From positions 2,112,001-2,176,000 of the forward strand of contig CBDBGH010000003.1 of NCBI GenBank assembly GCA_965205265.1: a stretch of 64,000 nt of DNA. The letters are read 5' to 3'. This document shows, piece by piece, positions 46,605-53,312 of the stretch. Within the stretch, counting starts at the first letter, position 1. Each line of letters starts with the position of its first letter. The notes beneath the pieces were generated by a model. That model was not told the DNA's origin and did no database searches. It saw only the letters and a program-made list of their open reading frames with translations. The translations under genes were made by a program, and so were the position numbers. Origin of the DNA: Alphaproteobacteria bacterium. GTDB lineage: Bacteria; Pseudomonadota; Alphaproteobacteria; Bin95.

Positions 46605-47087
46605 TCAGCCGCCCGCCTTCCTCCGCGACTCATATAGGTCGATCAGCTTCAGCACGTCGGCGGCGTCCATGCGGCCTAGCGGGCCGTCGCTGTAGCTGGA
46701 CGCTTCAACTGTGCCATTCCCGTCGAGGATGAACTCGGAGGGCTGGACGATGCCGCGGCGCTCCTCCCACCACGCGCCGACCCGCTCCCCGTCCGCGCGC
46801 GTCATGCCGTATGCGAAGGGGAAGCTCTTGCCGTCCGCCAGTTTGCGGGCGTTGTCCTCATCGTCCACGCTGCCGGCGAGGATGGAGACGCCGCGCGCCT
46901 CGAACTCCGGCCACAATTCCTGGAAACCGTCCAACTGACGGCGGCAATAAGGTCACCAGTGGCCGCGGTAGAACAGCACCACCTTCCAGGCGCCCGGTAT
47001 GTCGGCGGGCACTTCCGCCGGCCCCCGGTCCAGCAGGTTCAGCGAAAGGGCCGGAAATGCGGCGCCGATCCCCAGCTTCTCACCCAT
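46605..47087 (-). CDS. Peroxiredoxin-like (AhpC/TSA/redoxin) selenoprotein, UGA at codon 45
   Basis: RBS plus ATG at 47087; FYRGHW-TGA-PYC (UxxC); TGA at 46953-46955; downstream hairpin GCCGUC-AGUUG-GACGGU. Confidence 0.85.
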
Positions 47088-47154: not shown

Positions 47155-47685
47155 CTACCCGGCCGCGTCGCAGGTCCTCGTCGGCAGGCCGGGCCCGCCG
47201 GTGCGGGCGCTGCGGCGTTCGAACAGCAGCACGTCGTGCCAGACGCCGTCCAGATGCCCGTAGCGCTCCCGGCAGCCGACCTCGCGGAAGCCGCATTTCC
47301 GGTGGAGCGCGATGCTGGGCTCGTTGGCGACCATGATCTGCGCCTGGAGCGTCCAATAGCCTTCCGCCTCGGAGGCCGCGATCAGGCCTTCCAGCAGGGC
47401 AGTTCCGGTCCCCGACCCTTGCGCGCTTTCGCCGACATAGACGCTGACCTCAGCGACACCGGCAGCGCCTCAGGTGTCGGGCGCGGGCGTCAGCGCCGCC
47501 CAGCCGACCGCGCGGCCGTCATCGCCGCGCACGACCAGCCTGCCGATAGCCAGATGGCCCTTGTTCCACGCCTTCCAGCTCGGCGGGTTCTTCATGAAAG
47601 CGGCGATGCCCGTCCTCAGGCCCGTGCGGTAGATGGCGCGGACCTCGGGCCAGTCGCTGTCCCGCATCGCGTCGATGACGATCAT
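47155..47685 (-). CDS. GNAT (phosphinothricin/MddA-like) N-acetyltransferase with in-frame UGA at codon 72, probable selenoprotein
   Basis: GWAALTPAPDT-TGA-GAAGVAEVSVYV...QGSGTG...NEPSIALHRKCGFREVG; TGA at 47470-47472; hairpin CGCUG-AGGU-CAGCG. Confidence 0.75.
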
Positions 47686-47790
47686 CGGCCGGGTTCCATC
47701 TGTTCCTTCTGCGGCATTGCCGGCAATTCTGTGCGCCCGCCGGTCCGGCCGGTCAAGAGGCTGTATTGGCTCTTGACTCGGCCGTGATTA

Positions 47791-47805
47791 GAACAAATAT
47801 TGAAC
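47791..47805 (+). promoter_or_regulatory. Alphaproteobacterial LexA box
   Basis: GAAC-AAATATT-GAAC upstream of imuA, overlapping a candidate -10 (TTGACT at 47773). Confidence 0.88.
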
Positions 47806-47807
47806 TA

Positions 47808-48635
47808 ATGTTGCCTATATGCCCCCGAAAGAACCCCGCCGGCCTTGCCGTGCTGCGCCGGCGGATCGCGCTGCTGGAGCGCCGGACGGCGGTTGCGGAG
47901 CCGGTGGGAGGCGGGGCGGCGGAAGCCTGGCAGCTCGGCCCGGACGCCCTGGATGCGGCCCTGCCGGAAGGCGGGCTGGCGCCGGGCGGGCTGCACGAGG
48001 CGGCGGGCGCGGCGGCGGGGGACGGGCCGGCGGCCGGCGCCTTCCTCGCCGCCCTGCTCGCCCGGCTCCGGCGCCGGGACGAACGGCGCGCCGTGCTGGT
48101 CTGCCAGAGCCGGATGAGTCCCTTCGGCCGGCTTTACGGGCCGGGCTGGCGGGACCTCGGCCTCGAACCGGCTGACCTGCTGCTGCTCTCCGCCCGCCGC
48201 GACCGGGATGTCGCCTGGGCGATGGAGGAGGGATTGCGCAGCGCTTCCCTGGCAGCGGTGCTGGGCGAGGTCGAAAGCCTCGATTTCACCCTGAGCCGCC
48301 GGCTCGCGCTCGCCGCCCGCGAGAGCCTGACTCCCGCCCTGCTACTGCGCCGCGACGGCCTCGCGCCCGCAAGCGCCGCCTTCTCGCGCTGGCGGGTCGC
48401 GGCGCTGCCCCCGGATCGGGGTACGGGGCGGGCCGATCCATTCGACGCGGCCGCGCCCGGCCTGCCGCGCTGGCGTCTGGAACTGCTGCGCTGCCGGGGC
48501 GGGCGGCCTGCAACATGCGATGTGGAATGGAACCATGAGACGGCTGATTTCGGTGTGGCTGCCGCGCTGGCCGATCGACCGGCTGCGCCGCGCGCGGCGG
48601 CCCGCCGCCCTGCCCTCGCGCGCGCCGCCGGCTGA
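47808..48635 (+). CDS. imuA: ImuA (RecA/SulA-like) mutasome protein
   Basis: LDAALPEGGL..GGLHE, WAMEEGLR, SRRLALAA, WRLELLRCRGG; start uncertain. Confidence 0.88.
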   Translation: MLPICPRKNPAGLAVLRRRIALLERRTAVAEPVGGGAAEAWQLGPDALDAALPEGGLAPGGLHEAAGAAAGDGPAAGAFLAALLARLRRRDERRAVLVCQSRMSPFGRLYGPGWRDLGLEPADLLLLSARRDRDVAWAMEEGLRSASLAAVLGEVESLDFTLSRRLALAARESLTPALLLRRDGLAPASAAFSRWRVAALPPDRGTGRADPFDAAAPGLPRWRLELLRCRGGRPATCDVEWNHETADFGVAAALADRPAAPRAAARRPALARAAG

Positions 48636-50087
48636 GCCGGTGCCGTTCGCGCTCACCGCGCCCGGCCGCCACGGCGCGGTGCTGGCGGCGGTCAACCGGC
48701 AGGCTGAGGCCGAGGGGCTCGCGCCCGGCATGCGGCTTGCCGACGCCCGCGCCCTGCTGCCCCGCCTCGCCGCCGCCGAAGCCCGGTCGGCGGAGGACCG
48801 GCGCGGGCTCGAACGCCTCGCGCTCTGGTGCAACCGCTTCACCCCCTGCTGCGCGGTGGACGGCGCGGACGGCCTGATGCTCGACATTGCGGGCGCCGAC
48901 CATCTCTTCGGCGGCGAGACGGCGATGACGGCGGAGGTCGAGGCGCGCATCGTCGGCCTCGGCTTCGAAGCGTGGACCGGCCTTGCCGACACGCCGGGAG
49001 CCGCCTGGGCGCTCGCCCGCTTTGGCCGGGAAGGCAGCCGCATTGCCGCGCCCGGCGCCGCCCTTGCCGCGCTCAAGGCGCTGCCGGTCGAGGCGCTCCG
49101 GATCGCGCCGGAGGACGCCCGCCTGCTGCGCCGCCTCGGCCTCAAGACCGTCGGCGCGGTGGAGGTCCTGCCGCGCGCGGCCCTCGCGCGCCGGTTCCCC
49201 CGTGGGAAGTCGAGCGACACCGTTCTGGAACGCCTCGACCGCGCGCTCGGCCGCCGCCCCGATCCGGTCGCGTCCCTGCCGCCGCCGCCCGCCTGCCTCG
49301 CGCGCCTTGCCTTCCCGGAACCGCTGATCGACCTTGCCGGGCTGGAGTCGGCGCTCGCCCGGCTCGTGGAAGACCTTTCCGCCTCGCTGGAGCGGGACGG
49401 GCTCGGCGCGCGGGAACTCGCGCTGCTGTTCTGCCGGGTGGATGGCGACGCAGCGGAGCGCGGCGTTTCGACCGCGCGCGCCACTCGCGACGGGGCGCAT
49501 CTCCAGCGCCTCTTCACCGGGAAGATCGAGACCGTGGACCCCGGCTTCGGGATCGACGCGATGGCGCTCCATGCCGTCCGCGCCGAGCCTCTTGCGCCCG
49601 AACAATTCCGGCTGGCGGAAGGCGGGCGCGGCAGCGGCGAGCTCGGCCTGCTGATCGACCGCTTGCAGGCCCGCCTGGGCGAAGGGGCGGTCTCCCGCCT
49701 CGCGCCGGTCGCAAGCCACCTGCCGGAACGCGCCGAACGGCGGATGGCGCCCGGCCGGGGAGGTGCGGCCTGGCCCGTGCGGCCGGGCCTGCCGCAACGC
49801 CCCTTCCGCCTGTTCGACCGGCCCGAACCGGTAGAGGCCGTGGCCGAGGTGCCGGACGGGCCGCCGGCGTTGTTCGCCTGGCGCCGGCTCCGCCGCCGCA
49901 TCGCCCACGCCGAAGGTCCCGAGCGCATCGAGCCGGAATGGTGGGCCGGCGGCCCGGAGGATACGCCGCGCGACTATTTCCGCGCCGAGGACACGGAAGG
50001 CCGGCGCTACTGGCTCTTCCGCGCCGGGCTCTACCGGGACGCCGGCAGCAAGGGGCCACCCCGCTGGTATATCCACGGACTCTACGG

Positions 50088-50091
<4 letters not shown>
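48535..50091 (+). CDS. imuB: ImuB Y-family polymerase-like protein
   Basis: GMRLADARA, DHLFGGE, GPERIEPEWW, RDYF, WYIHGLYG. Confidence 0.92.

Positions 50092-53312
<3,221 letters not shown>

Follow-up and report, generated by a model that had tools for sequence, protein, structure and literature searches.

The 64,000-nucleotide stretch of DNA considered here (called the window; positions 2,112,001 to 2,176,000 of the forward strand of contig CBDBGH010000003.1, assembly GCA_965205265.1, from an alphaproteobacterium of the GTDB lineage Bin95) carries on its reverse strand, at 47155..47685, a gene for a protein of the GNAT acetyltransferase family whose reading frame is interrupted by a TGA codon. 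The frame opens with ATG at 47685 and runs through 71 residues (open reading frame 47470-47685, reverse strand) to TGA at 47472-47470 (codon 72); past this triplet it continues for 104 sense codons until TAG at 47157-47155. Read through, the coding sequence consists of 176 codons plus TAG and specifies 176 residues, with selenocysteine (Sec, U) at residue 72. The read-through protein includes GVAEVSVYV, QGSGTG and NEPSIALHRKCGF, and its sequence around residue 72 is ...PDT-U-GAAGVAEVSVYVGESAQ... (An earlier inspection of the letters of this DNA, the sequence-only reading, had called the gene a GNAT selenoprotein; translation of the window reproduces its coordinates, its 71-residue frame with TGA and 104-codon continuation to TAG, and all three of its sequence strings.) The best explanation of the locus, which we hold with considerable confidence, is that an intact gene encodes a 176-residue selenoprotein of GNAT fold in which UGA72 is decoded as Sec. 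On comparison of sequences the gene is almost certainly intact and its in-frame TGA a Sec codon.

The TGA is conserved in relatives that were selected by protein sequence. A search with the read-through protein of 61 genomes (the window's own and 60 relatives) locates 20 places with 64-99% identity, each with an internal TGA: one in the window's own genome, others in 13 of 16 genomes of the same genus and in 5 genomes that represent two further genera of its family, and the last in a genome from a different family of the same class. The UGA codon of the window (47470..47472, reverse strand) and the TGA of the orthologs fall in one alignment column in all 20, with no further stop or frameshift, and the consensus around them is ..P[A/V]PDT-U-GA[A/P]GVAEVSVY... 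Metagenomes yield 69 loci to a protein query, 47 of which could be parsed by pattern (22 could not); TGA occupies the Sec column in 29 of the parsed loci, 17 of them from a low-GC subclade, and the other 18 are stop-free homologs. Sequences of this subclade read ..SST-U-GY[V/I]GVAEVSVHV.. and end in a tail of the form GG[N/H/P/L]GLPTRKC. (The subclade is marine, comprises loci L138-L147, L150-L154, L157 and L158, keeps a tyrosine at position 74 and has histidine in place of Tyr83.)

Matches in sequencing runs are all to contigs. One, which belongs to a run from a different study, matches 47335-47485 with 0 differences, TGA included; another (X1), from which the window was probably drawn, is not independent, and gaps in the coverage of X4 carry no meaning. 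A contig from an RNA library (X16) is 93% alike and spans 47195-47783, its differences being listed in part; it does not amount to proof of transcription. The base-call error that the sequence-only reading had allowed for is excluded by the recurrence of TGA in 20 of 20 orthologs, in 29 metagenome loci and in the contig of the other study. A profile search of 1.84 billion representative proteins returns a single full-length gene call, P0260 (244 bits), with W at the Sec column; in the corresponding DNA, on metagenome contigs, this W codon is actually TGA.

Pairwise ratios of non-synonymous to synonymous substitution (dN/dS) are 0.21 upstream of the TGA (154 pairs) and 0.16 downstream (189 pairs), by which measure both halves of the gene are evidently translated and constrained. 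A second set of sequences, collected by a pattern search for TGA plus hairpin, adds 62 species genomes and, being selected by hairpin, is uninformative on hairpin conservation; beyond the TGA the frame is intact (101-108 residues) in 58 of these 62 loci, cut by contig ends in 2 and broken in 2. (Of the broken loci, L069 diverges approximately 35 residues after the TGA and L095 stops after 33; these may represent decay or assembly errors.)

The segment that follows the UGA has the structure expected of a bacterial selenocysteine insertion sequence (SECIS). The minimum-free-energy fold of the 48 nucleotides (nt) from the UGA onward (-17.3 kcal/mol) pairs CGCUG (47451-47455) with CAGCG (47442-47446) in a 5-bp stem closed by an apical loop AGGU (47447-47450) that starts 19 nt after the UGA, all on the reverse strand. 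The sequence-only reading had described just this hairpin, with G second in its loop and this spacing. The same fold provides an extended lower stem (47430..47467, reverse strand; GCGCUG.CG.. with ..CG.CGGC) that is genus-specific. What is seen here agrees with all four constraints that the legend to Fig. 2 of PMC13188914 sets on a bacterial SECIS: the loop has 4 nt, its second base is G and the next is G again, the upper stem has 5 bp, 19 nt separate UGA and loop, and the minimum free energy is -17.3 kcal/mol.

What singles out the hairpin is the behavior of its codons. Among the 20 protein-selected orthologs there are 56 degenerate columns at which the amino acid is invariant, and the codon varies in 50 of them; the 6 codons that never vary are consecutive, 77-82 (GTC GCT GAG GTC AGC GTC), and coincide with the hairpin CGCUG-AGGU-CAGCG together with one flanking G-C pair beyond a U-U mismatch. 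This core (GUCGCUGAGGUCAGCGUC; 47440..47457, reverse strand) is the only codon-invariant stretch. In the low-GC subclade, also selected by protein, nearby codons mostly end in A or T and the block is still GTC GCT GAG GTC AGC. A sole stem change is found among protein-selected metagenome loci (AGC to AGT in L144, which turns a G-C into a G-U pair); this variant is present in 2 sequences among 85 distinct stretches. In other genera the flanks outside the core vary, so that conservation is confined to the core. Since stop-free homologs encode the same residues with varied codons (GTT, GTA and GTG; GCA, GCC and GCG; GAA; AGT and TCG), constraint on the protein fails to explain the invariance of the hairpin, which in this comparison of codons is far beyond chance.

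The genome is equipped to decode UGA as Sec. The sequence-only reading had asked after its sel genes, and all are there: selA (531 bits), selB (435 bits) and selD (277 bits) score above their cut-offs, and a tRNA-SeC with anticodon TCA is found by ARAGORN. In 41 of the 61 genomes selA exceeds its cut-off; every one of the 20 carriers of the gene is among them. By the mechanism that these elements strongly support, SelB charged with Sec-tRNA(Sec) binds CGCUG-AGGU-CAGCG, 19 nt downstream, and inserts Sec at UGA72 during translation. Because the formate-dehydrogenase-alpha-like genes of this genome (contig C3, 2645458-2648259 and 3866038-3867954; loci L130-L133 and L136) have no in-frame TGA, although selA, selB, selD and tRNA-Sec are present, the Sec trait is apparently sustained here by selenoproteins other than formate dehydrogenase, such as the present one. 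For the same reason the use of FdhA as an internal control for the SECIS element was dropped.

Two readings of the locus dispense with Sec. According to one, a Cys codon (TGC or TGT) has mutated to TGA and the gene is decaying. Such a change from TGC takes a single base, gene callers split the gene (261 short public fragments, and no full-length call above 61% identity) and 2 of the 62 pattern loci are broken downstream of the TGA; yet the same TGA recurs in every one of the 20 orthologs, the most distant of them 64% identical, as well as in the low-GC subclade, the frame is intact in 58 of 62 loci with 2 more merely contig-cut, dN/dS downstream is as low as 0.16, and the hairpin is conserved at synonymous sites, all of which makes the likelihood of a pseudogene negligible. 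The divergence of the orthologs (64-94% identity), and synonymous change everywhere else in the gene, argue also against recent copies of one mobile pseudogene. According to the other, UGA is read as Trp or Cys by a near-cognate tRNA, or else is a programmed stop that yields a 71-residue peptide and a separately started C-terminal piece. The W of gene call P0260 would speak for this were it not TGA in the DNA; genes of the same genome (the Prx-like gene and the paralog described below) terminate at TGA, which points to the standard code; no start codon is conserved after the TGA; and a split would, in the structural model, part strands beta3 and beta4 of one sheet. Plain read-through also leaves unexplained an invariant SelB-type hairpin at canonical spacing and the strict presence of selA, and we consider decoding other than by Sec very improbable. 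Insertion of Sec into an intact GNAT protein remains the preferred account.

Relatives of the protein with Cys at the Sec column exist in number. The best stop-free homologs are 53-61% identical over approximately 90% of the protein; Cys is found at the Sec column in 15 of 19 that were aligned, and in 103 of the best 120 (the rest having R, P, E, H, A, T or Q, with 4 unparsed). Their consensus, GWAALSPVSxRCVYAGVAEVSVYV, aligns Cys with the TGA, as in the homolog string that the sequence-only reading had given, and its expectation that close homologs would have Cys is borne out by both counts: the alternation at this column is of TGA with Cys, not with Arg, Trp or Gly. A maximum-likelihood tree from a quick search was scored with the Shimodaira-Hasegawa-like approximate likelihood ratio test (SH-aLRT); its 110 rows are 55 Sec sequences, 40 of the 120 stop-free hits (every third) and 15 paralogs or relatives. 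A single branch (SH-aLRT 99) separates the Sec rows from the rest, and they lie within the Cys rows, a monophyly that is partly by construction because the Sec rows are mostly hairpin-selected; their sister (support 89) is the Cys-bearing P0027, whose tail already reads GGPSIC. When 401 genomes sampled evenly across the class are searched with a profile, 5 score 289-310 bits with one TGA each, and the next best (191 bits) has no stop; no Cys ortholog lies between. Clade comparison shows the Sec clade, as far as these sequences resolve it, to have arisen once from Cys-bearing relatives.

Carriers of the Sec form comprise 62 species genomes, mostly of Alphaproteobacteria with a few labelled Gammaproteobacteria, and the low-GC marine subclade. 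(The metagenome-assembled genomes labelled Gammaproteobacteria are those of loci L107, L064 and L112, assigned to Pseudohongiella and Granulosicoccaceae. With its 94% identity to the window protein, the copy in L107 suggests mis-binning or recent transfer, not vertical descent.) The window's genome also holds a stop-free paralog (G000, C3:900123-900626; L002 1501-2005) that is 50% identical to the Sec protein, has Pro at the Sec column (..APVSARPVYAGVGEVSIYL..) and scores 128.5 bits against ArsN1a, below the cut-off of 170. An internal TGA first flagged in this paralog is its terminal stop. Genomes of the same genus that do not have the Sec form still hold the paralog.

The protein is readily recognized as a GNAT. 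It exceeds the cut-offs of three Pfam models (PF00583 Acetyltransf_1, 53.6 vs 20.7 bits; PF13508, 36.9 vs 27; PF13420, 33 vs 24.3) and falls below those of its three best NCBIfam equivalog models (ArsN1a, 116.9 vs 170; PPT_acetyltrans, 59.6 vs 300; ArsN1b, 58.7 vs 210). An AlphaFold2 (AF2) model built from 55 family members has a predicted local distance difference test (pLDDT) score of 91 and a predicted TM-score (pTM) of 0.87, with lower confidence at residues 71-80 (pLDDT 75), 161-170 (80) and 171-176 (54). Its nearest structures by Foldseek are PSPTO_3321 PAT, PA4866, Brucella PAT, BAR and PpArsN1 (TM-scores 0.81-0.86), and sequence E-values against PAT, ArsN1 and BAR structures are approximately 1e-14. 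With this PAT/ArsN1/MddA group (PpArsN1 5JTF/5WPH, PSPTO_3321 9IGK/9IGL, PA4866 2J8M, BAR 5T7E) the protein shares its fold, 25-32% identity, a similar length, the acetyl-coenzyme A (acetyl-CoA) loop and a Glu in beta4, and ArsN1a is its best NCBIfam model. The acetyl-CoA pyrophosphate-binding loop is Q89-G-S-G-T-G94 (47404..47421, reverse strand), which fits the GNAT motif Q/R-x-x-G-x-G/A; G92 hardly varies among the 55 sequences of alignment A2, and the loop and Glu79 are both retained in the Sec clade. We take the roles of the loop (acetyl-CoA binding) and of Glu79 to be those of the GNAT literature, and acetyl-CoA binding is probably kept.

The acceptor side of the protein is another matter. 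In PpArsN1, according to the available text of PMC6465285, one chain contributes Ile31, Phe33, Ala124 and Val158 to the substrate site and the other contributes Arg75, Ala76 and Arg77, to which Tyr80 is added in one phosphinothricin pose, and the arginines of the site are called gates. V80 and Y83 of the present protein match Val86 and Tyr89 of PpArsN1; by this offset of 6, position 71 is that of Arg77, position 74 that of Tyr80, and Sec72 falls on PpArsN1 residue 78, and the R-x-R-x-x-Y spacing is also visible in the alignment to 9IGK. By this alignment, and so far as the published site is described, Sec72 is shown to lie in the beta3-beta4 loop, the loop whose Arg-x-Arg-x-x-Tyr side chains, in PAT and ArsN1, hold the far end of the amino-acid substrate and which reaches the active site of the partner subunit.

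Comparison of 55 Sec-clade with 119 Cys-type sequences shows how this site differs between them. Cys-type proteins have S69, R71, Y74 and T29 in 119 of 119 and G116 in 110 of 119. Sec-clade proteins (n=55) instead have P69 (89%), T71 (87%, otherwise N or S), G73 and A74 (100% each), A29 (95%) and Q116 (95%), the clade replacements being S/R69 to P, R71 to T/N, Y74 to A (in the main subclade) and G116 to Q/E; His150 is also specific to the Sec clade. The equivalents of PpArsN1 Arg75, Arg77 and Tyr80 in the window protein are accordingly P69, T71 and A74; in the low-GC subclade Tyr74 is retained and the arginines are absent. Distinctive of the clade, too, is a C-terminal arm, G163-G-P-G-L-P-T-R-T-C172 (47170..47199, reverse strand; the Cys172 codon is 47170-47172). 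C172, L167 and G163 are invariant in alignment A2, residues 166-172 of the clade read G-L-P-T-x-x-C and are missing from 117 of 119 Cys-type homologs, and the arm with its Cys is present in 29 of 29 TGA-bearing metagenome loci. The Sec form thus departs from the PAT/ArsN1/MddA group in the absence of the substrate Arg and Tyr side chains, in having Sec between those positions, in G116 replaced by Q and in the added arm GGPGLPTxxC. From its Cys-type relatives (...SxRCVYAGVAEVSVYV, named 'phosphinothricin acetyltransferase' or 'YncA' by JGI), which are 53-61% identical to it and in 103 of 120 cases have Cys where it has Sec, it differs in that they keep S69, R71 and Y74, mostly have no arm (117 of 119), and have varied codons and no hairpin. 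These relatives are uncharacterised, and score 128-155 bits against ArsN1a, below its cut-off.

What such a pocket might do can be sketched. Comparison of the clades shows that the Sec clade, descended from Cys relatives, replaced the Arg and Tyr side chains of the pocket and gained a Gly/Pro-rich arm with an invariant Cys as its last residue. Because the anion-binding Arg and Tyr are lost, the acceptor is presumably not phosphinothricin, arsinothricin or methionine sulfoximine; and because Sec appeared together with an arm, rich in Gly and Pro, that carries an invariant Cys, the combination suggests a catalytic chalcogen with a resolving Cys. In methionine sulfoxide reductases and in the thioredoxin reductase tail, which are Sec or Cys enzymes, the resolving Cys is carried by a C-terminal arm that is flexible and rich in Gly. 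They resemble the present protein in a catalytic pocket chalcogen and an invariant Cys near the end of a Gly/Pro-rich tail, and differ from it in fold and in that the pairing here is a proposal. We can entertain, tentatively and at somewhat less than even chances, that Sec72 and Cys172 form a redox-active selenenylsulfide pair (Sec catalytic, Cys resolving on a swinging arm) in an enzyme that still binds acetyl-CoA; what the pair acts on, captures or gates would then be a new acceptor unlike phosphinothricin. A more specific version is doubtful: that Sec72 captures or reduces an amine bearing S, Se or As through a covalent Se-X bond, that Cys172 resolves this bond and that the GNAT core acetylates the substrate so held. 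We know of no such mechanism for GNATs or for selenoproteins.

Two other roles for Sec72 have to be set beside the redox pair; the sequence-only reading had named an acyl carrier, a redox switch and a metalloid-binding residue. Sec72 might be an acyl carrier that takes the acetyl group from acetyl-CoA as a selenoester in a ping-pong reaction, with Cys172 incidental. Selenolates are excellent nucleophiles, some acetyltransferases use a Cys acetyl intermediate, and the acetyl-CoA loop and Glu79 are retained; but residue 72, by the alignment to PpArsN1 as its site is described, belongs to a partner-chain loop at the far end of the substrate and not beside the thioester, and nothing in such a role accounts for the flexible arm and its invariant Cys, which came with the remodelled pocket, so that a carrier function is distinctly improbable. 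A redox or ligand function for Sec72, at the far end of the acceptor pocket, agrees better with the evidence. As ligands, Sec72 and Cys172 might bind a soft metal or metalloid, either a trivalent arsinothricin-like arsenical that is then acetylated or a regulatory metal. ArsN1a is the best family match (116.9 bits), the clade-specific His150 is close in sequence terms, and arsenite methyltransferase is given as a verified selenoprotein in Table 1 of PMC13188914. However, the ArsN1a score is under the cut-off of 170, as it is for the Cys-type homologs (128-155), no ars genes or other conserved neighbours are seen at the loci, and the arsinothricin-binding residues are lost; we think metalloid binding rather unlikely. 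Of the three roles the selenenylsulfide pair is the likeliest, at less than even chances.

A number of observations weigh against the Sec decoding, the redox pair or both. Selenium at residue 72 is predicted from comparison of sequences. The folding energy of the hairpin is no better than that of shuffled sequence (z = -0.74 for the 48 nt, 43 of 200 shuffles being as stable; -1.71 for the 26-nt core; 0.75 and -1.00 for two orthologs), and because stability is not significant in GC-rich DNA it was dropped as evidence in favour of conservation at synonymous sites. No compensatory double change is seen in the stem, only the single change from G-C to G-U, and a scan against Rfam gives no match to a SECIS family (three chance hits, E above 3). 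Invariance of the hairpin among the 62 pattern-selected loci follows from their selection and proves nothing, just as the construction of the tree favours a single Sec clade. The arm with Cys172 is modelled at low confidence (pLDDT 54-80), so that its pairing with Sec72 would have to be read as conjecture, and, both residues being invariant, co-variation cannot show it. The neighbourhood is of little help: the Prx-like selenoprotein gene that lies beside the GNAT gene in the window (see below) adjoins it in only 7 of 20 loci, is present in genomes that do not have the GNAT gene (G001 and G011) and is not found in some that do (G002 and G013). Crude clustering of open reading frames at the 62 pattern loci, which is noisy in high-GC DNA, yields no conserved operon partner that hints at a substrate; the commonest real neighbours are CobT (14) and cupin (11), and offer no functional lead.

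We regard the family, of which this gene is the founding member, as a real and widespread GNAT-fold selenoprotein family that apparently has not been catalogued. Table 1 of PMC13188914 (2026; 119 families or subfamilies) has no GNAT or acyl-CoA acyltransferase, and neither that review nor the 2022 review PMC9312934 mentions acetyltransferase, acyltransferase, phosphinothricin, YncA, COG1247 or the Pfam numbers. The accessible text of the BSepDB, deep-Sep, GOS and Sargasso papers and of a 2022 preprint on eight new families likewise has no acetyltransferase, acyltransferase or phosphinothricin term. No GNAT selenoprotein is found in the full-text literature so covered; supplementary tables, or BSepDB itself, may list the family. 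In NCBIfam (June 2026) no selenoprotein model matches the protein, only acetyltransferase models. Among public proteins of 96-308 residues none is more than 61% identical, and among those of 30-95 residues there are 261 at E <= 1e-15; the 120 fragments listed of these have 59-95 residues, are 65-94% identical and cover 34-54% of the query. The short entries, with no names attached, arise where gene callers end the frame at the TGA or begin it anew beyond, and in the public protein collections that were searched the family now appears, among the listed matches, only as such fragments of 59-95 residues.

Selenoproteins are overwhelmingly thiol-oxidoreductase-like. The sequence-only reading had stressed a non-redox fold outside that class, and this is fair, but selenoproteins of transferase type, arsenite methyltransferase among them, have already been catalogued in PMC13188914. 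The non-thioredoxin-fold selenoproteins given there (arsenite methyltransferase, methylated-DNA-protein-cysteine methyltransferase, a CTP-synthase-related and a SelO-like protein) resemble the present one in having Sec for a functional Cys in a transferase-type scaffold, a hairpin just after the UGA and abundant Cys homologs; they differ in that none of the 119 in that table is a GNAT or acyl-CoA acyltransferase. The interpretation as a GNAT selenoprotein is supported as a whole: all the tests that the sequence-only reading had named for its refutation were run, and none contradicted it. The recoding mechanism is standard and the fold familiar; the novelty lies in their being joined, and in the arm and the altered pocket that accompany them. 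Where a GNAT has a conserved Sec in its acceptor pocket, chemistry new to both the GNAT and the selenoprotein fields is to be suspected; if the sequence of capture, resolution and acetylation proposed above were correct, this would be the first selenoenzyme on the acyl-CoA N-acyltransferase fold, with two chemistries in one pocket. Recognition of the family would correct many annotations and enlarge the selenoproteome catalogue, and its 18-nt SECIS core is a compact and highly conserved object of study.

The neighbouring selenoprotein gene mentioned above, of the AhpC/TSA (Prx-like) type (PF00578, 70 bits), lies at 46605..47087 on the reverse strand, 67 nt downstream of the GNAT gene, with which it may share an operon. 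Its TGA is codon 45 (46953-46955), in the motif W-U-P-Y-C, and its stop is TGA at 46605-46607, after which there is a GC-rich inverted repeat. The internal TGA is kept in all full-length matches of relatives, and the type matches the catalogued 'Prx-like thiol:disulfide oxidoreductase, UxxC'. A hairpin CCGUC-AGUUG-GACGG, picked out by eye, is not given by the minimum-free-energy fold. Because co-occurrence with the GNAT gene is not strict, no partnership is claimed.

On the downstream side of this pair lie a staphylococcal-nuclease-like gene (PF00565; 46022-46546, forward strand) and a gene with a homocysteine S-methyltransferase domain (PF02574; 44850-46004, reverse strand) that is probably the N-terminal part of MetH; no link with the pair is apparent for either. 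Divergently from the GNAT gene, at 47766-53312 on the forward strand, runs what looks like a mutagenesis cassette of imuA-like, ImuB (Pfam IMS) and DnaE2 genes. It is preceded by a match to GTTC-N7-GTTC, the motif of the alphaproteobacterial LexA box, at 47791-47805, approximately 110 nt upstream of the GNAT start; this is the sole match in the window, where 1.29 are expected by chance.

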